DNA of 32,000 bases from Candidatus Electronema halotolerans (GCA_942493095.1 OW818675.1:1470001-1502000), one strand, 5' to 3'; positions 1-32,000 are shown, counted from the stretch's first letter. The notes: generated by a model from the sequence alone, not told the origin. Numbers and translations: made by a program.

Positions 1-555
1 GTGGCCGTGGTCTCGCTCCAGCCCAATTCAGTCGAGGAAATGTTCCGCTACTGGGAGGCGCTCGGCACCTTGAGCGGCCACGAGCCAGAGGCCAAGGAGA
101 TGATTGCCCGATTCGGCGCAGGCTTGGCTGCGATTGCCCGTCAAGTCGGGCAGGTGCCGGAAAGCCAGCGAAAAAAGGTCTATTTTGAGTCCATCCACAG
201 CCGGATGAAGACCTTTGCCACAACCTCAATGGCCATCTTTGTCTTGCAGTCCGCAGGCGGGATCAACATTGCCAATGATGCTGTGCAGGTGCGCTCCACC
301 AACATCGCCGAATACGGCAAGGAGCGCATTCTGGCCAAGGCTGATCAGATTGATGTCTTTCTTGCCCAGAAAGGACGGATGAATCCGGTGACACAAGAGA
401 TGATCATGAAGGAACCGGGCTTTCAGGTGATTAAGGCTGTGCGGCAGGGCCAAGTCTTTCTGGTGGATGAAAAAAAGGTTTCCCGGCCAACTATGGATTT
501 GCTGGAGGGCATTCAAGAAATTTTCGCCATCCTGCATCCAGAAGCCGGAGCCTGA
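1..555 (+). CDS. ABC-transporter periplasmic substrate-binding protein, C-terminal part (5' end outside window)
   Basis: The frame-1 ORF is open from base 1 and stops at 553-555. The C-terminal half looks like the siderophore/cobalamin/haem class of periplasmic binding proteins (tail ...AVRQGQVFLVDEKKVSRPTMDLLEGIQEIFAILHP). A hairpin plus T-run follows. Confidence 0.6.
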   Translation: MAVVSLQPNSVEEMFRYWEALGTLSGHEPEAKEMIARFGAGLAAIARQVGQVPESQRKKVYFESIHSRMKTFATTSMAIFVLQSAGGINIANDAVQVRSTNIAEYGKERILAKADQIDVFLAQKGRMNPVTQEMIMKEPGFQVIKAVRQGQVFLVDEKKVSRPTMDLLEGIQEIFAILHPEAGA

Positions 556-605
556 TTTGTCTGCATTTCAGCGGCAAAATAGGGTACAATGCCTGCACAA
601 ACCCG

Positions 606-628
606 GACGGAACGCGCTTCCGTCTTTT
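606..628 (+). terminator. Rho-independent terminator candidate downstream of the binding-protein gene
   Basis: The stem is GACGGAA (606-612) paired with TTCCGTC (618-624), with a 5-nt loop CGCGC. A TTTT run follows at 625-628. Confidence 0.6.
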
Positions 629-654
629 CCGGCCTTTGACCCGCACGCTTGGCG

Positions 655-2130
655 ATGAAATTTCACCTGCCCAATTTCACCAAAAAAAAGAAGCCTGACC
701 AGACGCAAGATGACTTCAGCACCCAGCAGCCCTTTGCCTTAGTCAAATATTTCTCCTTCACTTCCTTGGGCGTGTTCCTGCTCGCCACCCTGATCTTAGT
801 TTTGAGCTTTTCCGGCAATGCCCGCCGGACCATGCTGGAGCGCAGTGAAATCTACTCGCGCATGTTTGCCGAGAGCCTGAACCGGCAGGTCTTTTATCTC
901 TTTGTCCTGCCGACTTTTGTCCGCTACGGACGCATCGCCCTTTCTGATCCGATCCAGTTTGAGCAGCTGGACCTGATTGTCAGCGACATCATTCGCGGCA
1001 TGAAGATCAAGTCCGTGTCCATTTTTGACTCCAAGGAAAATATTGTTTCCTATTCGACCAAAGCCGAGCTGGTCGGGAAAAAAAACATTGGCGGGCTTGA
1101 GTACCAAGAGGCTCTGCGAGGCGAGAATTCCTCAGTGCTGATCGCCACCGGCTCCATGTTCAGCTTTCTGCCCGGCGCGCAGAGCGTGTCCTGCACCCTC
1201 AAGACCTATGTGCCTTTCCGGCAGGACAGCAGAAACGGCGGTTTGGGAGACATCATGGGCGTAGTTGAAGTGGAGCAGGATCTGTCCGGCGACATGGAGG
1301 CCCTGTTCTCGCTTCAGTTCAAAATCATTCTCCTCGCCCTGCTGGTGATGAGCATTCTCTTCTCCGTGCTCATCGCCCTTGTCATCCGGGCGGACCGGAT
1401 CATGGAAAAGAGAGCGCAGGAGCGGCGCGAATTGGAGCGGCAGCTACAAGAGTCCAAGCGGCTGGCCGCGCTCGGCAAGATGATCGCCTCTGTTTCGCAC
1501 GAGATCAAAAACCCCTTGGGCATTGTCCGTTCCACAGCGGAAATTATTGTCCGGCGGATCAGCAAGGTTGCGCCTGGCAACGAGCATTTGGCAGGAATTA
1601 TTGTTGAGGAAACCAGCCGTTTGGACAGAATTGTCCGGGAATTTCTTGATTTTGCCCGGCCCAAGGAACCAACGCTGGCCCACGGTTCGCTGAACGGGCT
1701 GATTGAGCGGCTTCTCACCTTTATGGAGCCAGATTTGCAGGCGAAAAATATCCTGCTCACCCTGCGCTTGGATGAAGATTTGCCGGAAGCGCTGATGGAC
1801 GGCGAGCAAATTTATCAAGTGCTGCTCAATATTGTCTTCAATGCGGTTCATGCCATGAGCGAAAACGGCGGCACCTTGACCATCCGCACTGCCGCGCTGC
1901 CGGAGGGCGGCGTTTCCGTGGCGATTGGCGATACTGGCTGCGGCATGGCGGAAGAAAAGCTGACTCAAATTTTCACCCCTTTTTACACGGATAAAAACCG
2001 GGGCACTGGTCTGGGATTGGCGATCACCAAGAATATTATTGACAAGCACGGCGGCAGCATTGCCGTGCAAAGCAAGGAAGGCGCAGGCACCACATTCACA
2101 GTCTCTCTGGGCGGCGGGAGCGCGGCCTGA
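655..2130 (+). CDS. Membrane sensor histidine kinase (HisKA + HATPase_c)
   Basis: ATG at 655 (the ORF track starts at TTG 649). Two hydrophobic helices flank a roughly 170-aa extracytoplasmic segment. H box SHEIKNPLGIV, N box LLNIVFNAVHAM, G boxes DTGCGM and GTGLGLAITKNIIDKHGGSI. Confidence 0.9.
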   Translation: MKFHLPNFTKKKKPDQTQDDFSTQQPFALVKYFSFTSLGVFLLATLILVLSFSGNARRTMLERSEIYSRMFAESLNRQVFYLFVLPTFVRYGRIALSDPIQFEQLDLIVSDIIRGMKIKSVSIFDSKENIVSYSTKAELVGKKNIGGLEYQEALRGENSSVLIATGSMFSFLPGAQSVSCTLKTYVPFRQDSRNGGLGDIMGVVEVEQDLSGDMEALFSLQFKIILLALLVMSILFSVLIALVIRADRIMEKRAQERRELERQLQESKRLAALGKMIASVSHEIKNPLGIVRSTAEIIVRRISKVAPGNEHLAGIIVEETSRLDRIVREFLDFARPKEPTLAHGSLNGLIERLLTFMEPDLQAKNILLTLRLDEDLPEALMDGEQIYQVLLNIVFNAVHAMSENGGTLTIRTAALPEGGVSVAIGDTGCGMAEEKLTQIFTPFYTDKNRGTGLGLAITKNIIDKHGGSIAVQSKEGAGTTFTVSLGGGSAA

Positions 2131-2132
2131 GT

Positions 2133-2513
2133 TCAGGCGGGCAGGTGCCGGGCCACGGTTTCCAGCACAATGTCGGCGGCAAAGGGCTTGAGGATGAAAT
2201 CGACCGCGCCGAGCTGTAGGCCCTGCCGCCGGTCCTCGGCATCCTCCTTGCCGGAGACGAAGATGACCGGAATATGAGCGGTGGCCGGGTCCGCCTTCAG
2301 TTCCTTGCAGACTGCAAAGCCGTCCATGCCCTCCATCATCACATCAAGCAGGACAATATCCACTGCCGCCGGGTCCTGCCGGACAATTTTCAGAGCAATT
2401 TCCCCCTTTGGCGCGGCCTTGACCGTGTAGCTCTTCTGCAGGATCATGTTGAGCAGCATGAGGTAGCTGGGCGTGTCGTCAACCGCCAGCACGCATTTTT
2501 TCCTTTGTTCCAT
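2133..2513 (-). CDS. Stand-alone CheY-like response-regulator receiver
   Basis: 126 aa. Has VLAVDD acidic pocket, the phospho-acceptor context DIVLLDVMMEGMDG, the conserved S/T in VIFVSG and the Lys in ILKPF. There is no output domain. Confidence 0.9.
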   Translation of the reverse strand: MEQRKKCVLAVDDTPSYLMLLNMILQKSYTVKAAPKGEIALKIVRQDPAAVDIVLLDVMMEGMDGFAVCKELKADPATAHIPVIFVSGKEDAEDRRQGLQLGAVDFILKPFAADIVLETVARHLPA

Positions 2514-2871
2514 TGTTCATCGTGTTATTTTGATTTGACGTGCGTTCAGCCGCCCGTGTGATCCGCTCTCTGAGGATGCGGACAATCTCGACTGTGCCTT
2601 GAAAATGCTCACCTTCCTCAAGCATGACCTGCTCATAAAACTTGCAGGCATAGCAGCTGCTGATAGTGCGGGCAAAAAGGCCCTGCACCTTTTCCGTCGG
2701 GCCGGACATGGTGCCGGTCAAGGCCCAGCAGGCCCGTCCGCCGTTGCTGCCGCTGTTGATGCCGTTGACTGCAGTCAGGGTGGAAGCCGGACACAGGCCG
2801 TGTTTTTTCACATTGACACCGCCGGGCTGCCGTCCGCAGCCCCTGAATTCCCAGCAATTTTTCTTTGTCAT
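2479..2871 (-). CDS. Small Cys-rich protein with two CW motifs (two-CW-type domain)
   Basis: 130 aa with six Cys (C6, C12, C27, C48, C73, C76), including CWEFRGCG and RACW. This matches my recollection of the NCBIfam two-CW domain seen in deltaproteobacterial signalling proteins. Its ATG overlaps the upstream stop (ATGA at 2868-2871) and its 3' end overlaps the receiver gene start by 35 nt. Confidence 0.65.
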   Translation of the reverse strand: MTKKNCWEFRGCGRQPGGVNVKKHGLCPASTLTAVNGINSGSNGGRACWALTGTMSGPTEKVQGLFARTISSCYACKFYEQVMLEEGEHFQGTVEIVRILRERITRAAERTSNQNNTMNNGTKEKMRAGG

Positions 2872-3443
2872 TCGCCGAGCCTCTGTTCAGGCTGAATCAG
2901 CAGACCGTCAAACATTTCGTCAATCTGTTTGTCATCCAAGAAATCAGCAACATGCTTGAGCTGCTCCTGCCGCTGCGCTGCTGTCTGCATATTATTCTTT
3001 TTCTGAGACGGCGCAGGCGCTGCTGTTTTCTTTTTCTTCTCTGCTGTCTCCTGCAGCCGGAAATCTTCCGCCAATGACTCAATCACCCGGTTGATCTCCA
3101 GCCGGGCAATGCCGAAACTGTCCGGGTTGTCCACCAGCAGGACTAAATGAATATGCGATTTTCCCGGCTCGGCCCGGAGCGGATTTCTGCCCTCATTGAG
3201 GCAGCGGAGCAGAATCAGCGCCTTGTCTGTATGCACACAGGTGAGCGCACAGTTGCCAAAACCCATGTCAAGCGCTGTTTTCTGGGCATTGACCAGCATG
3301 TTGTTGGCCAAAGTGGCAATCAGTTTAAGATCAATGTCAAACGGCTCGCATTTGGCCAGCAGACGGCCTTCCGCCGAGAAAAGGGCGGTTCCCAGAAAAC
3401 CATCTATTTCCGCTAACTGAGACAGTTTCTTCTGCACATCCAT
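2868..3443 (-). CDS. Roadblock/LC7 (MglB-like) domain protein with a charged Lys/Gln-rich tail
   Basis: 191 aa. The N-terminal ~115 aa fit the Roadblock/LC7 pattern (IDGFLGTALFSAEGRLLA...; HIHLVLLVD...). A strong SD AAGGAG (plus-strand CTCCTT at 3450-3455) lies 6 nt before the ATG at 3443. Confidence 0.7.
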   Translation of the reverse strand: MDVQKKLSQLAEIDGFLGTALFSAEGRLLAKCEPFDIDLKLIATLANNMLVNAQKTALDMGFGNCALTCVHTDKALILLRCLNEGRNPLRAEPGKSHIHLVLLVDNPDSFGIARLEINRVIESLAEDFRLQETAEKKKKTAAPAPSQKKNNMQTAAQRQEQLKHVADFLDDKQIDEMFDGLLIQPEQRLGE

Positions 3444-3505
3444 ACGATGCTCCTTGGCTTGTTTTCCGGCGGCGGAAATGAAAAAAGGGGCTTCCTCTGC
3501 TTTTT

Positions 3506-3533
3506 CTTATAACAGAAAAAAGAAGGCAAGCAA
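3506..3533 (-). promoter_or_regulatory. Sigma70-type promoter candidate for the Roadblock operon
   Basis: On the minus strand: TTGCTT (3533-3528), 16-nt spacer, TATAAG (3511-3506). The -10 element sits inside a 7-bp AT-rich inverted repeat, TTTTTCT (3501-3507) and AGAAAAA (3514-3520), which could be an operator. Confidence 0.3.
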
Positions 3534-3904
3534 AGGCGGATATGCGGGACAAACGCTCTGGCGCGGTGCGATCAATCACAGAGTGCCAGTGCTTTAATTA
3601 TGTTCGCGTCGCCAGATGACGAAGACCATAGCCCACTTTGGCATGTTTTCCGGCAGACTGACCTGCGCCTGCACACTATTGGCTTATTGAGCTGGGAGAT
3701 GTTCAGCTTAAACCTGAAGCACCCATGTCGCCAAAAGAATGGCTTAGGGATTTCATTGCAGCCAGTTTTGAGGAAGTATTTAGTAATATTTGAGGAATTC
3801 TGCGCAGGCAAGATAGTGATTGATGAGAAGGGCTAACCAATGGGTATAGCCGCTACTGCGACTGAACAGTAGCATCACATAGCAATATAGCTCTGCTTGT
3901 GTGC

Positions 3905-3941
3905 AACGAGAAAGCCGGGCCACAACACCTCGTGACCCGGC
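3905..3941 (-). terminator. Rho-independent terminator downstream of the HU-like/DUF4469 gene
   Basis: Minus-strand hairpin GCCGGGTCAC / GTGGCCCGGC (10 bp including one G-U pair, 8-nt loop) at 3914-3941. It is followed by TTTCTCGTT (plus-strand 3905-3913) and lies 17 nt after the stop at 3958. Confidence 0.6.
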
Positions 3942-3957
3942 CATCCAGCATCCTCCC

Positions 3958-5031
3958 TCACCCCATCTGCAAATCCAGCACATCCACCAGCCTGCCGTCG
4001 TAGTCATTGACGACCAGCGTCTTCAAGGCGGGGTAGTTGTCCACGCGAATGCTCAGGCTGCTCACTGTTGAGCCGCTGAAGCCGGGCAGGACAAATTCTC
4101 CGTTCCCGGTTGCCGGGACAATCATTCCTGCCGCGCCGCCGTCCTGCATATCGATCAGCTTGAAGGCCAGAATATCATCCTGCACGTTGTGCTCGACCTG
4201 CACCCGCAGCCGCGCATCCGCCGTTAGTTCGCCTGCAATGACAACCACATAAGGCGCAGCCGCGCTGCCGGTGAGAATGCCGGTCTCCGGCGGATTGGGA
4301 TGACCGAGTTGCGCCACGGTCAGAGGGCTGCGCAGTCTGCCGCCGTAGGTGCCGGTGCGCACCGACCCGTGTTCGGTGTACTGCGTGGTGATGGCTGCCA
4401 TGTATTCGTTGTTCCACGGGTGGGCCTGCGCCGGAATGTGCGGCACCAGCAGGATTTGGCTGTCGCTGACGCTGGCAAACTGGGTCTGCACCGCGCTGCC
4501 GCTCTCAGTTCCGGCCAGCACGCAGCGGCAGTCCGGCGACTGCCAGTCAAAGGCGAGATTGCTGCCGCTCAGGCGCAGCACACCGTCCGGGTTGAGGACA
4601 TTGCTCAGGCCGGTGGCAGTGTCCGCAGCCGCCAAGATCGCGGGCATCTTTTCTGTCCACGGCTCGCGCACCAAGGTCGCCTCAGCCTGAAAATCCTTGA
4701 CATACGGCTGTGAAGCCGAGATGTTCAGGCCGAGAAGCTGCTCCATAGGCGGCAGCGGCGCGTCCGGCGCATCCAAGCGGGCGTGAAAGGCGGGCCGGAA
4801 GGTCATGGCATCCTCCAAGGTGACTTGCAGGCCCTCCAGCAGCATGGCCTGTATCTCCTCCATTGCCGAGCGCAGATGGTTCTTGATCTGCTCCGCCGAG
4901 GAGCCGGGATTCTTCAGGGCGACACGGGCCGCCACCTCGTCGTAGCCGCCTGTGCCCTGCGGGACAAAGCGGAGCCGGTAGGAGGCGGGTTTGGTCAGGG
5001 GATTCCGCTCGATGCGATAGTGAACAGCCAT
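3958..5031 (-). CDS. HU-like DNA-binding domain protein with DUF4469-like Ig-fold region and an extra C-terminal domain
   Basis: The start is taken at ATG 5031 (MAVHYRIERNPLTKP...), preceded by SD GGGAGGA. The N-terminal ~90 aa resemble the HU_HIG type histone-like domain. The following region (…GVLRLSGSNLAFDW…ILLVPHIPAQ…) resembles DUF4469. The ORF-track extension to 5349 runs through a non-coding repeat array. Confidence 0.6.
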   Translation of the reverse strand: MAVHYRIERNPLTKPASYRLRFVPQGTGGYDEVAARVALKNPGSSAEQIKNHLRSAMEEIQAMLLEGLQVTLEDAMTFRPAFHARLDAPDAPLPPMEQLLGLNISASQPYVKDFQAEATLVREPWTEKMPAILAAADTATGLSNVLNPDGVLRLSGSNLAFDWQSPDCRCVLAGTESGSAVQTQFASVSDSQILLVPHIPAQAHPWNNEYMAAITTQYTEHGSVRTGTYGGRLRSPLTVAQLGHPNPPETGILTGSAAAPYVVVIAGELTADARLRVQVEHNVQDDILAFKLIDMQDGGAAGMIVPATGNGEFVLPGFSGSTVSSLSIRVDNYPALKTLVVNDYDGRLVDVLDLQMG

Positions 5032-5140
5032 GATGATGTCCTCCCTTGGGGATTTAAGATGCTGATGCAACCGGACAATGCGTTGATTTCCCAAAATACG
5101 GAGCAGCGGGCTTGCTGTCAAGACAAATATGGGCAAAGTC

Positions 5141-5301
5141 CATGCATGCATGGAGTGATTTTCGATGCTGGCATGGAGGATCACTCCAACGTAGCATGGA
5201 GAGGTGCTCCATGCTTGCTTTGAGATTTCCTTCATGCATGCATGGAGAAAAAGTCCAACGCAGCATGGAGATTTATTCCATGCTGGCATGGAGTGGAAGC
5301 C
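5141..5301. repeat. Seven tandem 23-bp units with core GCATGGAG (iteron-like array)
   Basis: Units start at 5141, 5164, 5187, 5210, 5233, 5256 and 5279. Core GCATGGAG is found at 5148, 5171, 5194, 5240, 5263 and 5286; the fourth unit is degenerate (GCTTTGAG at 5217). Units 1 and 5 share CATGCATGCATGGAG, units 2 and 7 share ATGCTGGCATGGAG, and units 3 and 6 share TCCAACG(T/C)AGCATGGAG. Confidence 0.9.
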
Positions 5302-5467
5302 CGGCCTTGATGGGCGTATAGGCGGGGTGCTGCTGCGGGAGATTTTCATAGTTGACGTGGGGGAATATGTGCTGTAAATACTGGATGGATTGCAGAGGAG
5401 CAGTGAAAAGAACGATTGGCAAACAGACTGTCATAAGTCTTTTAAGTTTTATGAATAGGAGATATTT

Positions 5468-5782
5468 ATGGACGAGCAACTGCTTCAGGAAAGAGCAAAA
5501 GAATTGATCGACATTAAAAGGCAGATCAAAAAGCTGCTTATTAAAGAAAAAGAGATGAAAGGCGAGCTGTTGCCGTTAATCAAAGAATATGGGGCCGTTA
5601 ATTTTGATTATGGCAGAGTTTATTACGTAGCATCGAAGGGAGCTGAGACCTTTAGCAGAAAGGTTGTTCTTCAGTATCTAAAAGAAGCCTATGGAGAGGC
5701 TTTAGCTGATCAAGTAGACAGGGATTGCACGAAGCATAATGAGTCAAAAGAGATATTGTACATAACGGTAAATGATTTGTAA
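5468..5782 (+). CDS. Hypothetical 104-aa protein, N-terminal coiled coil (possibly phage- or plasmid-derived)
   Basis: Strong SD AGGAG 6 nt before ATG 5468. The gene is AT-rich. It has a Lys/Glu-rich helical N-terminus (ELIDIKRQIKKLLIKEKEMKGEL). I recognise no family. Confidence 0.6.
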   Translation: MDEQLLQERAKELIDIKRQIKKLLIKEKEMKGELLPLIKEYGAVNFDYGRVYYVASKGAETFSRKVVLQYLKEAYGEALADQVDRDCTKHNESKEILYITVNDL

Positions 5783-5976: not shown

Positions 5977-6025
5977 CTCCATGCTGCCATTGAGGAACAC
6001 TCCAACGCAGCATGGAGCAGAGGCT
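5977..6025. repeat. Outlying copy of the 23-bp unit, arranged as an 11-nt inverted repeat GCAGCATGGAG
   Basis: CTCCATGCTGC (5977-5987) and GCAGCATGGAG (6007-6017) are perfect reverse complements separated by 19 nt. CACTCCAACGCAGCATGGAG (5998-6017) matches 5182-5201 of the main array at 19 of 20 positions. Confidence 0.85.
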
Positions 6026-6463: not shown

Positions 6464-9400
6464 TTAGAACTGGCCGTGCCCTTGCACGACAATCTTTACG
6501 CTGAAGCTGTACGGCTTGCGGGCAATACCGCTGCCGTCAGTCAGCGTCAGGGTGACAGTATAAGCACCCGGCTTCTGGAAAACGTGGCTGACCGCTTCGC
6601 CCTCAGCTTTGCTGCCGTCGCCGAAATCCCAATGGCATATCCAGCTGTCCTGATCAGCATACAAATCCGTGTAAAAGAGCACCTCATCTCTGGCCCCGCC
6701 GCTGAAGACCTGCTCCGGTTCGTGGAGAATTCGCAGCTCCGGCGGCGGCAGAACGGTAACGGCAATTTCTTTTTCAGCAGCAAGACAAGCTGGTTCCTCT
6801 GAGCTGCCGCTGATGCGCAGCCGGACTATGTACTTGCCCGGCTTGCTGTAACTGTGACGGAACGCCCCGCCCTCCAGCGTCTTGCCGTCGCCAGTATCCC
6901 AACTGAAGAGCGGCTGCACACTGCTTTCCTCCAAGAGCACCGGCGTGATGCGCAGCTCCTCGCCGACAAGCACGGTGAGCTGCTCCGGCAGAGCAAGCTC
7001 CGGCAGACTGAGCACCTGCACGGTCAGTGTCGGGCCGGGCTGGCCGTCCACCACAGTGTGGATTTCCCGCCTGCCGCTTTGCGTGAAGGTCATGCGCACC
7101 GCCCTGCCCTGCTCGTTCAGCCCATTGCCGAAATCCCAATGCACCTGCTCGGCCTCGCCGGTCATGGCGTATTGGACTTCCTGATTGACGCAGACCTGGT
7201 CCGGCCCGTCAATCTGCAAGGCTGGCTGGCCAATAACAAAGACGGGCAGCTCGGTCTGCGCCTTGCCGCAAGATAGATCAGCGTTGTCATCCTCCACGGT
7301 CAGGCGGACGGCATACTGGCCCGGCTCCTTAAAGCTGTGCTGAACAAACCAGCCTTCAGCCTGCTGACCATCGCCGAAATCCCAGCTTGCCTTGCTGACC
7401 GCTCCGTCCTCATCAATGCTCTCGGCAGCGGAGAAATGCAGCACGGTGTTGGGCAGCACAGCCTGCGGGGTTTCAAAGCTCATCGCCTTCCCAGCCGCGC
7501 TCCAGCGGATGCGGGGCACAGGCGGCTGATTGATCTTGATTTCCCGGCTGCTCTCCGAGCTGCTACAGACCGAGTTCTCCGGCTTGTCAGCCTTGAGACG
7601 GACAGTGTAACGCCCTGCCCTCTCATAGCTGTGCCCCGCTGAGACCCCGTTGCCAGTCGCGCCGTCGCCAAAATTCCAGCTATATCGGGCTGATTCCCCA
7701 TTAACCGCCGTTGACCCGGAAGCGTCAAAGGTCAGCTTCTCGCCGACGCAGCCGTCGCTGGCCTTGAAATCCGCCTGCGGCGCAGCCAGCACCCGCACCT
7801 TGCGTTCATCCTCAGCCTGATTGTTGCAGCGACTCAGCTCAGGGGTTGTCACGGTCAGTCTGGCCACATACAGACCCGGATCTTTGTAGATATGATTGGT
7901 CTTGGCCAGCACATCCGTGCTGCCGTCGCCAAAATTCCACGCATAGCCGATGATGGGCCGTTCGCCGCCGCTGGAGGCCGTGCCGTCAAAAGCTGCCGGC
8001 GCATTGCTGCACACCTCAATATACTCGCCAGCTCTCGCCACCGGCGCGGCAATGAGCTGAATGTTTTTCCGCGCCTGACCCGCGTTGCATTCCAGACCGG
8101 AATCATCGAGCACGGTCAGATTGATCGGATAATCGCCCGCCTTGTCATAAACCCGGATCGGATTTGACCCTTCCACCTGCTGGCCGTCGCCAAGGTCCCA
8201 GAGATAGCGCAGCGGCCCGCCCTCCGGGTCATTGGACAACGAGCCGTCAAAGAGGACATGCTCGCCGACGCAGAACAGCTCGCCGGCCGTACGGATCACC
8301 GCTTGCGGCGGATGATTGATCTGCACCGTAATCTGCTTGGCATCGCTGCTGTTGCCCAGCCCTGTCTGATCATCCACCCGCAGGCGCACCGGATAGAGAC
8401 CCGGCGCGGCAAACTGGTGGCTGACGGCCACGCCTTGGCCGCTGCTCTGATCGCCGAAATCCCAATGATAGGCCAGCGGGTCTTGGTCAGGGTCAATGCT
8501 GGCCGAGCCGTCAAATTGCACGAACTGTTCGCAGGTATGCACATCCTTGCCCGGTTCTGCTTTAGGCGGGAAATTGACGGCCACAGTCTGCCGGGCGGTG
8601 GAGGTGTCATTGGCTGCGCCGCTCTCATCCTGCACCGTCAGCACGGCCTGATAACGGCCCGGTTCAGCATAGACATGCTTGACCTGCCTGCCCTCGCCCT
8701 TGCCGCCGTCGCCGAAGTCCCAGCTGCAGGCAGCAATGCCGCCGTCCGCATCTGTTGAGCCGGAAGCATCAAGCAGGACTTCCTTGCCCGGCTCAACACG
8801 CGGCAGAGCCTGCATCCGGGCAACGGGCTGGCTATTGACGGTCACGGTCAGATAATCACTGTGGCTCGCGCCGTCGTTGTCAACAACGGTCAGGCCAACC
8901 TGATACTGGCCGGGCTGGTCAAACTGATGCGCAAACTTTGCTTCCGTATATTTTTTGTCCTCAACCTGCCACGTGAAAGAACTGATCGTGCCGTCCTGAT
9001 CTAAAGAACGGCTGCCGTCAAACTGCACGGTTTCGCCCGGAGCGATGAGCTGATCTGCTCCGGCATCAGCAACTGGTGGCGCATTGACCCGGATGGCCTG
9101 CTGCGCCGACTGCGTCGCGCTGGCCGTGCCGGAAGCATCGGTCACGCGGAGCTGCACCATATAGGTGCCGGGCAGCGGATAAACATGACTGACGTTCACG
9201 CCTTCAGCCTTGCCGCCGTCGCCGAAGTCCCACGTATAACCAATGATCTTGTCGTCCGCATCGCTGGACTTGGAGGCATCAAAGACGACTTGGCTGGTGT
9301 TGACAATCTCCGGCATGGTGATGACCGGCACCGGCGGTGCATTGATCCGCACGGTCTGTTCTGCGAACTGACTTGCATTGCCGACCCCGGAGTCATCCTT

Positions 9401-11302
9401 TGCCGTCAGCCGAACCGTGTACAGGCCGGGTTCTTTGTAGGCATGACTGACCTGCCCGCCCTGCCCTGCTGCCCCGTCGCCAAAATCCCACGTATATAAA
9501 CTGATGCCGCCGTCCGCATCACGGGACTTGTCCGCATTGAAGCTGACCGGGACATTGGCGGCAGCCACTGAGGCCGAGGCCGTGATGACCGGCACTGGGG
9601 CGGCATTGATTCTGATGCTGCCGAGCATCTCGCTGCTGCTGTTGCTGAGGCCGGAGTCATCCTCAATTTGCAGCCGGATGCTATAGAGACCGGGCTGCTG
9701 CCACGCATGCTTGACCGTCTCACCCCTGCCCTGCTCGCCTTTTTCGCCGAAATTCCATCTGTAGGCCGTGATCGTGCCGTCACTGTCCAAGGACTGGCCC
9801 GCATCCAGCATCACTTCCTCGCCCGGCGCAGCCACCCGCTTGAACGTGAATTTCGCCAATGGCGCGGCATTGATCAAAATGCTGTGCTTGGCCTGATCAG
9901 TCGTGCAGAGACCCGGCCCGTCGTCCTCCACGATGAGCCGCACCTGATAGAGGCCGGGGCGGGCAAAGCTGTGCTCAATGGCCGGGCCGTTGTCTTCCCG
10001 GTCTTTGTCAAAAATCCAGCGGTAACGGATGAGTCTGCCGTCGGCATCTGCGGATGCGCTGCCGTCAAAGCGCACTTTTTCACCGGGAGCAGCACTGGCC
10101 GGGGCGGCAATCTGCGCCTTGGGCGGGGCATTGATGGTTATCGGCACTTCCACGCCCGCCTGATTGGCGACAAAGCCGGAGTCGTCCCGCACGGTCAGCT
10201 TGGCCGTGTATTTGCCCGGCTCTTGAAAATCATGAGTGATGCGGCTGCCGGTCGCGGTGCTGCCGTCGGCAAATTGCCATTCAAACTGGAGCTGGTCATC
10301 ATCCTGATCAACCGTGCCAGAGGCATCGAGCACGGCGGTATTGCAGGCGGACAACGGCGTGACCGTGACTTTCGGCTCCGGTATATGGTTGGCAGGAGCA
10401 AGAAAGGGCGGCAGCTCCAACGGAATTTCCCGGCCCTGATCATCCTCCAGCCAGAGCTGGACATAATTCACCTTGGCCGAGGAGAGCAGCACGGCAACAG
10501 TCTGGCCTTTTTCCTCGTTAAGGAGAGTGATCTTGGCGAAATCCGTGCTCTTGTCCTCCGAGCTTTTGAGTGCCACCTTTGGCCGCGCTGGCGAGGAAAA
10601 AGAGATGCGACCGCCGAAATTAGCAGTGTCAGCGTCAAAATTGGTGATTTTAAACGATTGACTTGCGGCTGGAATCGTGAAACGGATTTCTGTGTTCAAA
10701 GCCGAAGCATCCGGCACCTGCACATTCACTGCCGGAGCATAAAGGCGAAGACCGGGAACAGCCGTGTTCTTCTTTTCATCCGCTGAGATGAAGAGCTGAA
10801 ACTTGTTGCTGCCCGGGCCGGAAATGCCGTCAACCACGAGCTGAAAGAGAATCCTCCCGTCCGGGAGCCTGCCGTCCGCAGGGTTCAGAGCGGCAATAGT
10901 CCGCCAGCGGCTGTCGTAGAACGAGTTTTCGCCCAGCTCCAATGAGGCCAGCGGCGAAGCTTGGGGCAACGGCTCATCAATTTTGCGCAGATTCTGCTTG
11001 ATGGCTTGGCCGCCATAGACCAGATAGCGCACCTTGGAATTGTTATAATCAAGATCAAGCGTGCCGCCGAAATCAGCATCAAAAATGCGGACAAAAAGTT
11101 TGTCCGCAGAGCTGACATCGACTGAAAAATAAAAGACAAACCGCTGAAAATTCTCCTCAGTGACTTCCGGGCCAGTGGTGATGAGGAAATTCTGCTTTTC
11201 CGCTGCCATGACATTGCCTGCGGAGAGCAGCAGAAAAAGAAGGAGGGCGGCAATATAACGCATAATTGATCTAACAGCGGTTGGAATGCTTTGGTGAAAC
11301 AT
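6464..11302 (-). CDS. Giant secreted protein: signal peptide, ~270-aa unassigned N-terminal region, 15 tandem PKD domains
   Basis: 1612 aa. Signal peptide MRYIAALLLFLLLSAGNVMA (alternative start ATG 11263). There are fifteen W-x-F/L-G-D-G type PKD signatures (e.g. YTWDFGDG, CSWDFGDG, YHWDFGDQ, CHWDFGDG), each followed by the PG-Y-V-L-V-D pattern. I see no C-terminal anchor or sorting motif. Confidence 0.9.
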   Translation of the reverse strand: MFHQSIPTAVRSIMRYIAALLLFLLLSAGNVMAAEKQNFLITTGPEVTEENFQRFVFYFSVDVSSADKLFVRIFDADFGGTLDLDYNNSKVRYLVYGGQAIKQNLRKIDEPLPQASPLASLELGENSFYDSRWRTIAALNPADGRLPDGRILFQLVVDGISGPGSNKFQLFISADEKKNTAVPGLRLYAPAVNVQVPDASALNTEIRFTIPAASQSFKITNFDADTANFGGRISFSSPARPKVALKSSEDKSTDFAKITLLNEEKGQTVAVLLSSAKVNYVQLWLEDDQGREIPLELPPFLAPANHIPEPKVTVTPLSACNTAVLDASGTVDQDDDQLQFEWQFADGSTATGSRITHDFQEPGKYTAKLTVRDDSGFVANQAGVEVPITINAPPKAQIAAPASAAPGEKVRFDGSASADADGRLIRYRWIFDKDREDNGPAIEHSFARPGLYQVRLIVEDDGPGLCTTDQAKHSILINAAPLAKFTFKRVAAPGEEVMLDAGQSLDSDGTITAYRWNFGEKGEQGRGETVKHAWQQPGLYSIRLQIEDDSGLSNSSSEMLGSIRINAAPVPVITASASVAAANVPVSFNADKSRDADGGISLYTWDFGDGAAGQGGQVSHAYKEPGLYTVRLTAKDDSGVGNASQFAEQTVRINAPPVPVITMPEIVNTSQVVFDASKSSDADDKIIGYTWDFGDGGKAEGVNVSHVYPLPGTYMVQLRVTDASGTASATQSAQQAIRVNAPPVADAGADQLIAPGETVQFDGSRSLDQDGTISSFTWQVEDKKYTEAKFAHQFDQPGQYQVGLTVVDNDGASHSDYLTVTVNSQPVARMQALPRVEPGKEVLLDASGSTDADGGIAACSWDFGDGGKGEGRQVKHVYAEPGRYQAVLTVQDESGAANDTSTARQTVAVNFPPKAEPGKDVHTCEQFVQFDGSASIDPDQDPLAYHWDFGDQSSGQGVAVSHQFAAPGLYPVRLRVDDQTGLGNSSDAKQITVQINHPPQAVIRTAGELFCVGEHVLFDGSLSNDPEGGPLRYLWDLGDGQQVEGSNPIRVYDKAGDYPINLTVLDDSGLECNAGQARKNIQLIAAPVARAGEYIEVCSNAPAAFDGTASSGGERPIIGYAWNFGDGSTDVLAKTNHIYKDPGLYVARLTVTTPELSRCNNQAEDERKVRVLAAPQADFKASDGCVGEKLTFDASGSTAVNGESARYSWNFGDGATGNGVSAGHSYERAGRYTVRLKADKPENSVCSSSESSREIKINQPPVPRIRWSAAGKAMSFETPQAVLPNTVLHFSAAESIDEDGAVSKASWDFGDGQQAEGWFVQHSFKEPGQYAVRLTVEDDNADLSCGKAQTELPVFVIGQPALQIDGPDQVCVNQEVQYAMTGEAEQVHWDFGNGLNEQGRAVRMTFTQSGRREIHTVVDGQPGPTLTVQVLSLPELALPEQLTVLVGEELRITPVLLEESSVQPLFSWDTGDGKTLEGGAFRHSYSKPGKYIVRLRISGSSEEPACLAAEKEIAVTVLPPPELRILHEPEQVFSGGARDEVLFYTDLYADQDSWICHWDFGDGSKAEGEAVSHVFQKPGAYTVTLTLTDGSGIARKPYSFSVKIVVQGHGQF
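6467..10375 (-). repeat. Coding tandem repeat region (15 PKD-domain units of about 85-90 aa)
   Basis: The domain periodicity is visible in the translation. There are also DNA-level identities, e.g. the 25-mer CCTTGCCGCCGTCGCCGAAGTCCCA at 8698-8722 and 9208-9232 (offset 510 nt, equal to two units). Confidence 0.8.
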
Positions 11303-14154: not shown

Positions 14155-14304
14155 TATATACTGTTTGTCAGCCGCGCCTCGCCTCAAAGGGCGGGGCCTT
14201 GCTGAAGAGCACGTTGCTGTCACGCCGCAGGCACCGGAGTGCCAGACCCGCATCACGTCGTTTTTCTGTGCGGCAATTTTTTCTTTCTCAGGAGAACTCA
14301 ATTC

Positions 14305-15366
14305 ATGGCGATCTTAGACAAGGTGTTCAAAGCGGCGGTTGATCTCAAGGCATCTGACATCCATGTCCTGCCGGGTGAGCCGTTCATGGTCCGGCGGCTG
14401 GGCAAGATGATCCGGCTGAAAAGCCAGCCCCTCACCGACGCGAGCTGCCGCAAGGTGATCATGGAAATTCTCAGCCCGGAGCAGCAGCGCACCCTGCGCG
14501 AGCAGCTCCAGATAGATTTTGCCTACGAGATTCAAGGGCTGGGCCGCTTCCGGGGCAGCGCGATGTTTCACAACAACGGCCTGAGCTGCATTTTCCGGGC
14601 CATTCCCGGCAAGATTCCCTCGTTCAAGGAACTGGGCATCCCGGATGTGATGTACAAAATCTTGGAAAACCACCAAGGCATCATCTTGGTCACTGGCGCG
14701 ACCGGGCACGGCAAGACCACCACGCTCGCTTCAATGGTGGATTATATCAACAGCAACCACGCTCACCATGTTCTGACCGTTGAAGACCCGATTGAGTTTG
14801 TCCATCCGCTCAAGAAAGGAGCGATCAATCAGCGGCAGCTTGGCAAGGACACCATGTCATACGCGAATGCCCTCAAAGGCGCGCTGCGCCAGGACCCGGA
14901 TGTGATTGTCATCGGCGAGCTGCGCGATTTGGATACCATATCGCTGGCCATTTCCGCCTCTGAGACCGGCCACTTGGTCATCGGCACCCTTTCGACCTCC
15001 AGCGCGCCCAAAACGGTTGACCGGGTTATTGACTCCTATCCGGCAGGCGAGCAGAACCAAGTCCGGGCCATGCTCAGTGAGTCGCTGAAAGCGGTCTTCA
15101 CCCAGCGGCTCCTGCCCGGTGCGGACGGCACAGCCATGCACTTGGCTGTGGAGATCATGATCGGCAACCTGTCCATTGCCAATCTGATCAAGGACAACAA
15201 GACCTTCCAGATTCGCTCCACCATGCAGATGGGCCGGGCCGTGGGCATGAAGCTGATGGACGAATCAATCATCGAGATGCTTCAAGCAGGCAAAATCACC
15301 TACGATACTGCCAAGGCCAATATTGACAAGAAAGAGCTGCTCAGGCCCTTTGCCCCTAAAGCGTGA
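14305..15366 (+). CDS. pilT: PilT-family type IV pilus retraction-type ATPase (His box lacks the distal His)
   Basis: ATG 14305 follows SD AGGAGA. N-terminus ...KASDIHVLPGEPFMVRR, Walker A GATGHGKTT, Asp box LTVEDPIEFVH, Walker B DPDVIVIGELRD, PilT-type IANLIKDNK motif. The His box reads TGHLVIGTLST where canonical PilT has ...TLHT. Confidence 0.85.
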   Translation: MAILDKVFKAAVDLKASDIHVLPGEPFMVRRLGKMIRLKSQPLTDASCRKVIMEILSPEQQRTLREQLQIDFAYEIQGLGRFRGSAMFHNNGLSCIFRAIPGKIPSFKELGIPDVMYKILENHQGIILVTGATGHGKTTTLASMVDYINSNHAHHVLTVEDPIEFVHPLKKGAINQRQLGKDTMSYANALKGALRQDPDVIVIGELRDLDTISLAISASETGHLVIGTLSTSSAPKTVDRVIDSYPAGEQNQVRAMLSESLKAVFTQRLLPGADGTAMHLAVEIMIGNLSIANLIKDNKTFQIRSTMQMGRAVGMKLMDESIIEMLQAGKITYDTAKANIDKKELLRPFAPKA

Positions 15367-29585: not shown

Positions 29586-30389
29586 TCAGTTAAGCTGTGC
29601 CGGGCGGCGGAGCGGCTGGCTCTGCGGCGGTTGCCAGTCAGCCTTCAGCTCGTGCAGTTTGGCGTATTTATACCATGTTCCTTCAAAATTTCCCACTGCA
29701 ATAACAAAGCCGGGCCAGCCGTCAAGAATGCCTTTCTTCACAATATACATCTGAAAAAAGGACCAAAGGCCCCGGCTCAGGGCAGTGAACATGCCCGCGT
29801 TCCGGCCCCGCTGGCAGAGCTTTTCCGCTCCGAGGCTGGAATAGCGGTTGGCCTTGCGGGCCACTTCTTCCAGATTTTTATAGGGAAACTGCCAGATCGG
29901 CTGGCAAAGATACGCGGCAGGCTTGTCTGAGACAATCTCGTATTCCTCATGCACGGGATCGTTGCGGAAGCGCAGCGCGCCCTTGCGGAAGAGCTGCGGC
30001 TGACGGTAGTCTGGCCAGAAGCCGGAATGCCGGATCCAGCGGCCCATGAAAAAGTTGCGCCGGGGAATATAGTAGGCATCCGCCGGGCGGGGCTGGGCAA
30101 TGGCCGCCAAAATTTCATCCCGTGCTTCCGGGGTGCAGCGCTCGTCGGCATCCAAGGAGAAAATCCAGTCGTATGCGCAGGCGGCCATGGCCTGATTGCG
30201 CAGGTCGCCAAAGCCTTTGAAGTCAAGCTGCACCACCCGTGCGCCCAGCGCGGCGGCCATTTCCGCTGTGCCGTCGGTGCTGAAGGAATCAGCTACAACA
30301 ATTTCATCCGCCCAGAGCACAGAATTGACTGCGGCCTGAATCTTGTCCGCCTCGTTCCACGCTATAATGTATGCGGAAATTCTGCTCAT
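29586..30389 (-). CDS. Family 2 glycosyltransferase
   Basis: 267 aa. N-terminal ISAYIIAWNEADKI...VVADSFSTDGT and a DxD-type SLDADE. Its ATG overlaps the upstream ATPase stop (ATGA at 30386-30389). Confidence 0.85.
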   Translation of the reverse strand: MSRISAYIIAWNEADKIQAAVNSVLWADEIVVADSFSTDGTAEMAAALGARVVQLDFKGFGDLRNQAMAACAYDWIFSLDADERCTPEARDEILAAIAQPRPADAYYIPRRNFFMGRWIRHSGFWPDYRQPQLFRKGALRFRNDPVHEEYEIVSDKPAAYLCQPIWQFPYKNLEEVARKANRYSSLGAEKLCQRGRNAGMFTALSRGLWSFFQMYIVKKGILDGWPGFVIAVGNFEGTWYKYAKLHELKADWQPPQSQPLRRPAQLN

Positions 30390-32000
30390 CGCAGCGGCCT
30401 TGGCCCAGGAGGAGCTGGCCGTCTGGCCGCGCCGCCGCCTGCCAGCTGGATGACAATGTTGTCTGTCTTGCGCAGCCGCTTGGCCAGCGTCTTGAAAAGA
30501 TGATTGGATATCTCTGGATATTTTTCCAGCAATTCCTTCAGCTTGTCGCCAGGGTACTTTTTCACCTTGCTCCGGCCCACTGAAATGACTGAGGCGTAGC
30601 GGGGTTCTTGGAGCATGCAGGCCATTTCACCAAAATATTCGCCTGGCTCGGTAATTTCTGCGATTTTTTTGCCCTGCTTGAGCACTGCCACCTTACCGCG
30701 CACCAATTTGTAGAAATTGCGGTCGTCCTGATTGCCCTCCTGAATGATGATATCACCATCCTCATATTCCTCCACCGGCGGACTGACGAGATAGGGCGGC
30801 AGGGTGTCCTGATGGACAACTGTGCTGCCCTCCACCTCATCAAGACTGGTGACTCCCTGAACAGCCTTCAGAATTGCCGCTTGACGCAGGGTGTACATGC
30901 CTGACTGCACGGCGACCTTGCGAAGCTGCTCCTCAGAAACCTGCGCTTGGATGGCTTGCGCAACCTCGGTGGTGACTTCCAGCAGCTCAAAAAAGCCGAC
31001 CCGGCCCTTGTAGCCACGCCCGCTGCAGACCGAACAGCCCTTGGGGCCGTAGAGCTGAAAGCCTTCCTTGTCAATTTGCTCCTCACTGAAACCGATCTCC
31101 AGCAGCCTTTTCCGTTCGACTGTAATCGGCTGCTTGCACTTGGCGCAGAGCCTGCGGCCCAGACGCTGGGCCAGAACCATAGTCAGCGAACCTGCCAGAA
31201 TATACGGAGGAATGCCGATGTCAACCATGCGGCTGACTGTGGCCACTGCGTCGTTGGTGTGCAGGGTGCTGAAGACCAGATGGCCGGTCATGGCCGCTTT
31301 CATGGCAATCTCAGCCGTGCTGATGTCGCGGATCTCGCCGACCATGATGATGTCCGGGTCCTGCCGGAGAAAGGCCTTCAGGGCGGCAGGAAAGGTCATG
31401 CCGACCTCAACGTTGACGTTGACCTGATTGATGCCCTTGAAGTTGAATTCAACCGGGTCCTCGGCAGTGAGGATTTTTATGTCCTCGCTGTTCAAGGAGT
31501 TGAGTGCCGAATACAAGGTGACTGTCTTGCCGGAGCCGGTCGGGCCGGTGACCAAAAGCAGCCCTTGAGGCCGTTCAAGACAGCGTCTGAGGGCGGCAAA
31601 GGTTTCTTCCTCAAAACCGAGCTTGGTCAGGTTGACGTTGAGCGAGCCTTTGTCCAAAATACGGAGGACAATGCCTTCGCCGTGCAGGAGCGGCAAGGTG
31701 GAGACACGAAAGTCAACCGCCTTGTTGCGGCCCATGCGGATGCTGATGCGGCCATCCTGCGGCACCCGCCGCTCAGTGATGTTCAGCCCGGCAAGAATCT
31801 TCATGCGGGCTGAGAGAGCGTTTTTGATGGTCAACGGCAGGTTCATGGCCTTGTACAAGGAACCGTCCTTGCGGTAGCGGACCTGCATGGTCTTTTCAAA
31901 CGGCTCAATATGAATATCGCTGACCCCTTCCTGCACGGCCTTGACCAAGATGCCGTTCACCAATTTGATGATCGGCGCGTCATTGGCTGAGAACTGACCA
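30386..32000 (-). CDS. GspE/PilB-family secretion ATPase with a C-terminal cyclic-nucleotide-binding-like domain (5' end outside window)
   Basis: The frame stays open to the window edge (…GQFSANDAPIIKLVNGILVKAVQEGVSDIHIEP). Walker A GPTGSGKT, Asp box LTAEDPVEF, Walker B DPDIIMVGEIRD, His box TGHLVFSTLHTND, tetra-Cys CAKC…CSVC. An extra ~140 aa follows, with DGDIIIQEGNQDD…GEYFGEMACMLQEPRYASV (about 30449-30811). Confidence 0.85.
   Translation of the reverse strand, partial: GQFSANDAPIIKLVNGILVKAVQEGVSDIHIEPFEKTMQVRYRKDGSLYKAMNLPLTIKNALSARMKILAGLNITERRVPQDGRISIRMGRNKAVDFRVSTLPLLHGEGIVLRILDKGSLNVNLTKLGFEEETFAALRRCLERPQGLLLVTGPTGSGKTVTLYSALNSLNSEDIKILTAEDPVEFNFKGINQVNVNVEVGMTFPAALKAFLRQDPDIIMVGEIRDISTAEIAMKAAMTGHLVFSTLHTNDAVATVSRMVDIGIPPYILAGSLTMVLAQRLGRRLCAKCKQPITVERKRLLEIGFSEEQIDKEGFQLYGPKGCSVCSGRGYKGRVGFFELLEVTTEVAQAIQAQVSEEQLRKVAVQSGMYTLRQAAILKAVQGVTSLDEVEGSTVVHQDTLPPYLVSPPVEEYEDGDIIIQEGNQDDRNFYKLVRGKVAVLKQGKKIAEITEPGEYFGEMACMLQEPRYASVISVGRSKVKKYPGDKLKELLEKYPEISNHLFKTLAKRLRKTDNIVIQLAGGGAARRPAPPGPRPLR

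Follow-up and report, generated by a model that had tools for sequence, protein, structure and literature searches.

A Roadblock-fold protein with no GTPase encoded nearby is paired with a two-CW domain protein in cable bacteria, and joined by a receiver and a sensor kinase in Candidatus Electronema

To our knowledge, Roadblock and MglB proteins are textbook partners of GTPases, and almost no bacterial representative standing without one (an orphan) has been studied. What such a protein might do is the question raised by a four-gene cassette at positions 655 to 3443 of a 32 kb stretch of DNA from Candidatus Electronema halotolerans (GCA_942493095.1 OW818675.1:1470001-1502000; this whole stretch is called the window, and all coordinates are given within it). 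The cassette encodes a transmembrane sensor histidine kinase, a CheY-like stand-alone receiver, a stand-alone two-CW domain protein and a Roadblock-like protein, and an earlier note on this DNA had likened it to an actinobacterial conservon in which the GTPase was replaced. From the comparison with related loci, the Roadblock-fold gene and the two-CW gene form an obligate, translationally coupled pair in all cable bacteria sampled, and the best reading is that their products would act as a GTPase-independent adaptor-sensor pair that feeds a PATAN-type, probably motility-related network.

The Roadblock gene (2868..3443, minus strand, 191 aa) adjoins the two-CW gene (2479..2871, minus strand, 130 aa) in every sufficiently long locus (~13 distinct loci), and in the window the stop codon of the former and the start codon of the latter share the ATGA at 2868-2871. 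The spacing between the two genes is -4 to +5 nucleotides (nt) in Electronema and +11 to +44 nt in Electrothrix. The two-CW gene in turn overlaps the receiver gene (2133..2513, minus strand, 126 aa) by 35 nt if the receiver starts at the ATG at 2513, or by 14 nt with the GTG at 2492, which is the gene call of the identical contig L008 and gives a protein of 119 aa. With at least one plausible start this overlap is present in six of the seven Electronema loci; in L097, the nearest relative, the database gene call leaves a 19-nt gap. Shine-Dalgarno-like motifs precede both the Roadblock gene (AAGGAG, in the 5' leader of the operon at 3444..3486, minus strand, which is the last segment syntenic with L097) and the two-CW gene (AGAGG). 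The kinase gene (655..2130, plus strand, with an alternative TTG start at 649 in the list of open reading frames, ORFs) converges on the receiver gene, leaving 2 nt (2131-2132) between the two ORFs including their stop codons, and the receiver stop lies at -4 to +6 nt from the kinase stop in all six Electronema loci that reach that far. Because these tight junctions recur in independent genomes, they are not due to chance. The positions of the four genes and their overlaps are as the earlier note gave them (judged from the ORF list and the sequence), and its three small genes do make up one tightly coupled operon. A promoter and terminator scan of 400-4000 gave nothing exceeding shuffled expectation. 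An anti-phage defence role was ruled out, since no PADLOC defence-system model matched any of the four proteins.

Outside the window's genome, the pair is found at the end of a larger gene cluster. In Ca. Electronema (sp. PJ, E. aureum, sp. TJ, a JGI contig and L097) this cluster consists of a hybrid kinase (REC-PAS-HisKA-HATPase_c) on the opposite strand, a short REC(-PATAN) protein (uncalled in L097), a REC-PATAN protein of 387-398 aa, sometimes a 157-aa protein pre-annotated as 'RdxA_C', and then the Roadblock, two-CW and receiver genes followed by the convergent kinase. Direct Pfam scans of the long regulators gave REC, PF14332 (PATAN) and a weak Robl_LC7 match; the 'RdxA_C' (PF27323) label of the 157-aa protein was not reproduced with Pfam or NCBIfam profiles, and the protein may be V4R-like. 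In Electrothrix laxa, E. aestuarii and E. aarhusensis the PATAN cluster is followed by extra genes and by the Roadblock and two-CW genes, with no receiver downstream of the two-CW gene and no kinase at the locus. A PF14332 protein is in fact encoded in all other cable-bacteria loci with enough flank. The conserved core, as judged from gene order, is therefore the Roadblock and two-CW pair at the end of a PATAN cluster, to which the receiver and the abutting kinase appear to be an Electronema-specific addition. Since what lies past the kinase varies from species to species, these two genes behave as one unit, and the four-gene block is kept across Ca. Electronema species as both its flanks vary. 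The view that the cassette is conserved as a whole thus holds for Ca. Electronema, where the four genes stay together, but not for Electrothrix, which keeps the Roadblock and two-CW genes only. The restriction of the receiver to Electronema refers to this locus, the search for the receiver having covered the Roadblock/two-CW loci.

Among the extra genes of Electrothrix, one is for a 429-aa protein without a Pfam match, another (in E. aestuarii and E. aarhusensis) for a GATase_6 protein, and a third for an additional Roadblock protein, 133 aa long. Of the cable bacteria, only the marine ones have the 429-aa protein in their PATAN/Roadblock cluster (L006 5363-7471, L005, L012), and it has no NCBIfam match either; in E. 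aestuarii and E. aarhusensis it is adjoined by the GATase_6 protein, which is class-II glutamine amidotransferase-like, and the two presumably resemble the pairs formed by amidoligases and Ntn-hydrolases. The 133-aa Roadblock-family protein is encoded directly upstream of the long Roadblock gene (L006 7556-7957, L005 7524-7925, L012 3950-4351); it was detected by iterative search and not by Pfam, and none was seen in the Electronema loci.

A more direct tie between this type of Roadblock domain and PATAN regulators comes from L031, a contig of a 'Deltaproteobacteria' metagenome-assembled genome (MAG) that was found via its two-CW gene. It encodes a 418-aa REC-PATAN protein with a C-terminal Roadblock domain of the same family (136 bits to the hidden Markov model of the family, with RCLNEG...EPGKAHFH present), as well as a 396-aa REC-PATAN-Roadblock protein, and two two-CW proteins are encoded downstream. 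This fusion is Rosetta-stone evidence, though from a single case, that the Roadblock type works with REC-PATAN regulators. An origin of the stand-alone Roadblock gene by gene fission from the short REC-PATAN regulator is unsupported; within L031 each of the two regulators has the other as its nearest paralogue, and the 418-aa protein is nearer to the long than to the short cable-bacterial regulator.

The assignment of the Roadblock protein itself required more than profile searches. The kinase, receiver and two-CW proteins named in the earlier note all passed curated profile thresholds, but its Roadblock call failed in Pfam (Robl_LC7 at 19.0 bits against a cut-off of 23, E=1.2e-3) and stands as a predicted fold. 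An AlphaFold2 model built with 26 homologues has a block-mean predicted local distance difference test score (pLDDT) of ~69-90 over residues 1-130 (3054..3443, minus strand), with the topology alpha-beta-beta-alpha-beta-beta-beta-alpha. In a Foldseek search of the PDB the top matches were all Roadblock-superfamily chains, namely Asgard Roadblock proteins (9jue, 7f8m), LAMTOR/Ragulator (5y39, 5x6u), MglB of Myxococcus and Thermus (6hjm, 1j3w) and a Streptomyces Roadblock/LC7 domain (3kye), with target template modelling scores (TM-scores) of ~0.8-0.88, E values of 1e-7 to 1e-6 and a root-mean-square deviation (rmsd) of ~2 A. Taken by themselves, the MglB chains (6hjm, 6h5b, 3t1r, 1j3w) gave target TM-scores of ~0.7-0.85 and an rmsd of ~1.8-3 A, at a sequence identity of only ~17-22%. 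The cable-bacterial family is also picked up by jackhmmer when the search starts from an undoubted Robl_LC7 protein (Pfam score 53 bits). Since the model matches Roadblock, LAMTOR and MglB chains, the call is rescued, and on structure prediction the fourth protein is of the Roadblock/LC7 fold despite the failed Pfam cut-off.

The domain carries a family-specific loop (RCLNEGxNPLxAEPGKxHIHL) and is followed by a Lys/Pro/Gln-rich linker (~residues 131-165; 2949..3053, minus strand), which shows no conservation, varies in length in alignment A1 and is predicted to be disordered (pLDDT <50). After this linker, the protein ends in a conserved motif, L..VA..LD...ID..FD.LL (2868..2948, minus strand, up to and including the stop codon), in which D179 and L181 are invariant and L169, F178 and L182 nearly so (alignment A1). 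The motif is predicted to be helical with low confidence, and it is probably a tethered docking helix, a layout that presumably resembles that of MglB with its C-terminal helix; it is missing from the fused REC-PATAN-Roadblock protein of L031. C81, H97 and H99 are invariant within the family and C32 and H71 nearly so, all on or near the neighbouring strands beta2-beta5 of the model, where they may bind a metal or another ligand at a site not present in ordinary Roadblock proteins. Public records under Candidatus Electronema halotolerans hold identical copies of both the Roadblock protein (CAK8717164.1) and the two-CW protein (CAK8717159.1). All 58 Roadblock homologues come from cable bacteria (Ca. 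Electronema, Ca. Electrothrix and 'Desulfobulbus sp. F4') or metagenome contigs, and a metagenome scan with the Roadblock alignment gave five close cable-bacteria contigs and no distant relatives.

Its partner belongs to a much wider family. The two-CW protein matches NCBIfam NF045718 ('two-CW domain') at 93.3 bits (cut-off 35), with no significant Pfam match, and the Pfam-A release searched has no entry for the domain. Its six Cys residues (C6, C12, C27, C48, C73 and C76) and both Trp residues are invariant or nearly so in alignments A3 (49 diverse two-CW sequences) and A4 (12 sequences, used for the genome scan), the Cys-Trp pairs being C6-W7 and C48-W49, and the domain is followed by a C-terminal helix. 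The AlphaFold2 model (pLDDT 87.6, predicted template modelling score 0.74) consists mainly of loops and short helices, and neither a fold match nor a sequence match was found in the PDB, so that the predicted fold is apparently novel. The searchable literature gave no paper naming the two-CW domain and nothing relevant on DVU0259. An exhaustive HMMER search gave 1064 clusters (50% identity) at E<=1e-3 and 545 at E<=1e-10, and about two thirds of the best 150 matches are stand-alone proteins of less than 180 aa (mainly 92-135 aa). In 49 longer proteins, the co-occurring domains were HATPase_c (14), HisKA (9), PAS_9 (8), Response_reg (6), PilZ (4), Pkinase, GGDEF, PP2C, cNMP_binding and GAF (2 each) and STAS (1). 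In three proteins (P0131, P0148, P0150) the two-CW domain directly precedes the kinase core, with no further domain detected by sequence search, and the H-box of P0148 (AHEINNPL) is of the same type as that of the kinase in the window. The two-CW-REC order of P0213 is that of the adjacent genes in the window; the REC-two-CW order (P0090, P0164, P0171) and tandem two-CW domains are seen as well. Given its frequent fusions with kinase cores or receivers, the two-CW domain is best classified, on domain architecture, as a large family of signalling domains.

A scan of one genome per species (185k species) gave at least 573 confirmed two-CW loci. Among the matches listed, the lineages include Desulfobacterota, Nitrospirota, Ignavibacteriota, Omnitrophota, Planctomycetota, Acidobacteriota, Bacteroidota, Chloroflexota and methanogens; the family thus covers many bacterial and some archaeal lineages, mainly as uncultured genomes, and these lineages suggest that its carriers are mostly from anoxic habitats. 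Several JGI/IMG records label near-identical two-CW proteins as 'broad specificity polyphosphatase/5'/3'-nucleotidase SurE', which is almost certainly an annotation error. A general partnership of Roadblock and two-CW proteins was ruled out: a Roadblock gene lies within 5 kb of the two-CW gene in only 2 of the 76 non-cable loci (L031 and L033), and the 65 same-strand neighbours of non-cable two-CW genes show no dominant family (REC 5, PAS 3, HAMP 3, MCP 2). The pairing is therefore lineage-specific, the other 74 loci being without a Roadblock neighbour.

Both remaining proteins look catalytically competent from their translations, because the receiver (Response_reg, 92.3 bits) has all five canonical residues (D12, D13, D57, S87 and K109) and the H-box of the kinase, SHEIKNPL, is intact. 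The receiver is 78-86% identical across the six other Electronema loci. The kinase (HisKA 50.3 bits, HATPase_c 93.3 bits) has two predicted transmembrane segments around a periplasmic domain of ~170 aa, followed by the DHp and catalytic domains with the N, G1, F and G2 boxes present. Its best NCBIfam matches are the cores of AtoS and ZraS, under the equivalog cut-offs, and by sequence it classifies as a canonical HisKA/HATPase_c enzyme, NtrB/AtoS/ZraS-like. Orthologues with 60-86% identity are present in Electronema, Electrothrix, Desulfobulbus propionicus and Desulfolithobacter; in the latter three, they are full-length including the periplasmic domain and 60-68% identical. The D. propionicus gene sits after ftsQAZ and a radical-SAM gene, and that of E. 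aestuarii is surrounded by unrelated genes; at neither locus was a Roadblock or two-CW gene found nearby, nor a stand-alone receiver among the called genes. Since its orthologues occur elsewhere without cassette genes nearby, the kinase is an old orphan conserved across Desulfobulbaceae and not an analogue of CvnA that evolved with the cassette. In D. propionicus (L090 6578-7714) a 1-nt overlap couples the orthologous kinase translationally to a 378-aa protein without a Pfam match, past which lie an ABC ATPase, a UPF0014 protein and a hybrid kinase; this arrangement may be the kinase's ancestral context.

Whether a GTPase is encoded nearby bears directly on how the Roadblock protein is understood, and here the earlier note was right that there is none. 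No protein of the window matches a GTPase family, and its only four ORFs with a Walker A motif (a PilT-like ATPase, a PilB-like ATPase, an APS kinase and a PEP-synthase regulatory kinase) have no NKxD motif. Orthologous loci have no GTPase in the precomputed Pfam lists of nine of them, nor within 5-9 kb of any, and the possibility that homologous cassettes always carry an adjacent MglA-like GTPase was not borne out in those nine. This negative result covers the 32 kb window and the orthologous loci, not the whole genome. The only GTPase-containing neighbourhood with Roadblock and two-CW genes that was seen is L033 (1526-5300, from an Ectothiorhodospiraceae MAG), which encodes a 496-aa fusion of a Ser/Thr kinase and a small GTPase, a 220-aa protein without a family match, a Robl_LC7 protein (53 bits), a 284-aa protein and a two-CW protein.

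The conservons of Streptomyces consist of a kinase-like CvnA, the Roadblock protein CvnB, the DUF742 protein CvnC and the GTPase CvnD. What the cassette has in common with them is a Roadblock/LC7-fold protein encoded beside a membrane sensor kinase and two small signalling proteins, in a set of four genes. The proposed four-slot logic nevertheless fails, because there is no GTPase and no DUF742 protein (none in the window, its slot being held by the two-CW protein). The kinase is not of the co-oriented, co-inherited CvnA type either: it is a canonical HisKA enzyme, encoded on the opposite strand, whose orthologues are found across Desulfobulbaceae in genera without the cassette, and it is absent from the Electrothrix locus, where the Roadblock and two-CW genes do without it. 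Membership of the conservons (CvnABCD) was accordingly rejected, three of the four defining features being missing and the CvnB-type Roadblock/LC7 protein being present by predicted fold. Moreover, the Roadblock protein has a two-CW protein and a phospho-accepting receiver for partners, and the organisms are Desulfobulbaceae rather than Actinobacteria.

The absence of a GTPase is not surprising in itself, because orphan MglB homologues are common: 328 of 749 (44%) have no neighbouring GTPase, where 'coupled' means an mglA homologue within about four genes (PMC4316618). By this definition, and on gene content, the Roadblock protein classifies as an orphan MglB-like protein, with no mglA homologue in the window or the orthologous loci. 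MglA and MglB homologues also recur beside PATAN genes (PMC4316618), and PATAN is an output domain that binds PilB1 and PilC in Synechocystis, although coupling to the pilus motor is known only for the cyanobacterial PixE and PixG (10.1101/2021.06.11.447907). Like the PATAN/MglB neighbourhoods described before (Makarova et al. 2006; Wuichet and Sogaard-Andersen 2015), the cable-bacterial pair closes a cluster of REC-PATAN genes in which one regulator has its own Roadblock domain. Unlike them, the cable-bacterial locus lacks a chemotaxis-like CheA/MCP set, has a two-CW protein added and, in the window, comes without PATAN genes, and the REC-PATAN(-Roadblock) order differs from that of the PatA-type PATAN-REC regulators of cyanobacteria (PixG, PixE, PilG). 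The polarity module of Myxococcus xanthus (MglA, MglB, MglC, the receiver protein RomR and RomX/RomY) is similar in that Roadblock-fold proteins act with a receiver-domain protein, that MglB is a Roadblock domain with a C-terminal extension, and that type IV pilus polarity is also the suspected output of the cassette. It is, however, centred on the GTPase MglA, for which no counterpart is encoded near the cassette, and it has no two-CW protein.

In E. halotolerans the link with the cluster itself is broken. The blastn alignment of the window with L097 covers 652-3486 and then stops (the identical public contig L008 ends at 4002), and because no PATAN gene is present anywhere in the 32 kb the four-gene block appears, on this comparison, to be cut loose from the rest of the cluster at 3487. 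Beyond this point come 3 kb with a GC-rich ORF and an array of 23-nt repeats. In the segment 3487-6463 the GC content is 0.64, followed by 0.47 in the next kb; the segment looks like an insertion or rearrangement that parted the cassette from the PATAN cluster.

It is nevertheless tentatively preferred, as a reading that falls somewhat short of probable, that the cassette is the distal module of a cable-bacteria-specific cluster of the PatA/PATAN type, in which a Roadblock protein works without a GTPase. In this composite model, the two-CW protein would bind a metal or Fe-S centre and report the cytoplasmic redox, O2 or metal state, a role that is suggested by the six conserved Cys residues, by its place as the N-terminal and sole non-kinase domain detected in soluble kinases and by its apparent prevalence in anaerobes. 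It would dock on a Roadblock dimer, as the translational coupling and the 100% co-occurrence suggest. Roadblock domains form both homo- and heterodimers (MglB, MglC, LAMTOR), and by analogy with MglB and MglC the dimer could be a pairing platform, with the domain and the tethered C-terminal helix engaging the Roadblock domains of the PATAN regulators. In Electronema, the periplasm-sensing kinase would phosphorylate the small receiver as a second input to the same complex. Alternatively, the two-CW protein might modulate the kinase in trans, as PII (GlnB) does NtrB: in both cases a small stand-alone sensor could act on an NtrB-family kinase core, and the two-CW domain is fused to the same type of H-box in P0148, but PII is trimeric and ferredoxin-like and binds 2-oxoglutarate and ATP, whereas the two-CW is an unrelated six-Cys domain without a solved structure. 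The output would likely be type IV pilus-driven gliding or reversals, via PATAN regulators of the kind that bind PilB/PilC.

Several observations weigh against the composite model. There is the physical separation of the cassette from PATAN genes in the window's 32 kb; there is the dissociation of the two-CW domain from any conserved partner, Roadblock or other, in 74 of the 76 non-cable stand-alone loci; and the fusion in L031 is a single case. The metal-sensor role draws on nothing beyond the six conserved Cys residues and the position of the domain in fusion proteins, the pairing of kinase and receiver on nothing beyond adjacency (which, for an old orphan kinase, could be a historical accident), and the motility output is argued by analogy with cyanobacteria and Myxococcus.

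The cassette could instead be an ordinary two-component system, in which the kinase signals to the receiver, the Roadblock and two-CW proteins are its connectors or effectors, and the PATAN cluster is mere synteny without a tie to motility. The four-gene block is after all intact in E. halotolerans though the PATAN cluster no longer adjoins it, the receiver gene forms one transcription unit with the Roadblock and two-CW genes, the kinase abuts in all Electronema loci that reach it, and the fusions of two-CW domains with REC and with histidine kinases tie the domain directly to two-component proteins. Since Electrothrix keeps the pair without the receiver or the kinase, however, and still at the end of a PATAN cluster, the pair is independent of this two-component system; the fusion of the same Roadblock type to REC-PATAN in L031 also argues against this explanation, which is unlikely but deserves to be taken seriously. 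Somewhat more doubtful is a coincidental juxtaposition, by which the family-wide orphan kinase landed tail-to-tail with the operon in an Electronema ancestor and the receiver is served by another kinase, e.g. the hybrid kinase of the PATAN cluster. The orthologues in D. propionicus and Electrothrix (60-68% identity) do have unrelated neighbours and no stand-alone receiver gene beside them, the usual partners of NtrB-type kinases are NtrC-type regulators rather than lone receivers, and synteny at the level of a genus can by itself preserve adjacency. Such a coincidence fits poorly with stops that are -4 to +6 nt apart in six species-level loci of which the surroundings are rearranged on both sides, and with a receiver and kinase that are gained or lost together at the locus.

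A dependence on a GTPase, either as a conservon-like G-protein module with DUF742 and GTPase replaced or with the Roadblock protein as the GTPase-activating protein of a distant MglA-like GTPase, is very unlikely. It would account for a fold whose nearest matches (MglB, LAMTOR and Asgard Roadblock proteins) all partner GTPases, and for the MglB-like succession of domain, flexible tail and C-terminal helix, and the unrelated L033 has its kinase-GTPase fusion, Robl_LC7 protein and two-CW protein within 4 kb. Yet neither the window nor the 5-9 kb around the orthologous loci holds a GTPase, a DUF742 protein or a CvnA-type kinase, the kinase that is present is canonical, on the opposite strand and independently conserved, and orphans make up 44% of MglB homologues anyway (PMC4316618).

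Of the other features of the window, the 3' part of a gene for a Peripla_BP_2 periplasmic binding protein (1..555, plus strand, 41.7 bits) lies upstream of the kinase and is context only; it is shared with L008 and L097 and not present in L001, L002 and L004. A 463-aa ORF (3958-5349, minus strand) has weak HU-DNA_bdg and DUF4469 similarity, and its N-terminus is inflated by the 23-nt array on the opposite strand. This array (5139-5316) has seven tandem copies with a 23-nt period and a palindromic unit of approximately TCCATGC..GCATGGAG, with one more copy 700 nt off (5978-6017), and the copies bracket a 104-aa ORF (5468-5782, plus strand) without a family match. Just past the non-syntenic segment, a secreted-looking protein of 1612 aa is encoded (6464-11302, minus strand) with many repeats of ~90 aa that are PKD-like by eye. 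Genes for a PilT-like ATPase (14239-15366, plus strand, adjoining a 4Fe-4S dicluster protein) and a PilB-type T2SSE ATPase with a C-terminal cyclic-nucleotide-binding domain (30386-31963, minus strand, 434 bits) lie 11-27 kb from the cassette, a distance that is no evidence of pilus coupling.

Orphan MglB homologues, and neighbourhoods of PATAN genes and MglB homologues, were already known (PMC4316618). New is that, in cable bacteria, an orphan Roadblock protein with a tethered C-terminal motif is obligately paired with an uncharacterised six-Cys domain, and that in one genus this pair is extended by a CheY-like receiver and a conserved kinase. Literature searches gave nothing relevant on cable bacteria together with Roadblock or MglA. 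Because the orphan is hard-wired to two-CW proteins, receiver domains and PATAN regulators, the cassette is a clean, conserved case with which GTPase-independent Roadblock signalling becomes experimentally tractable, and the two-CW domain is a candidate for a new class of sensors. In its furthest-reaching form, which is improbable as a whole, the two-CW domain would be an unrecognised metal or Fe-S fold of anaerobes for sensing redox or O2 on a GTPase-independent Roadblock scaffold, so that redox state (and in Electronema a periplasmic signal) would act through PATAN regulators on the direction or reversal of gliding. If true, this would be a missing link between the electrical and redox status of the filament and its oxygen- and sulfide-seeking behaviour. 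For the molecular basis of how cable bacteria sense redox gradients and steer their gliding, this lineage-specific signalling cluster is a concrete place to look.

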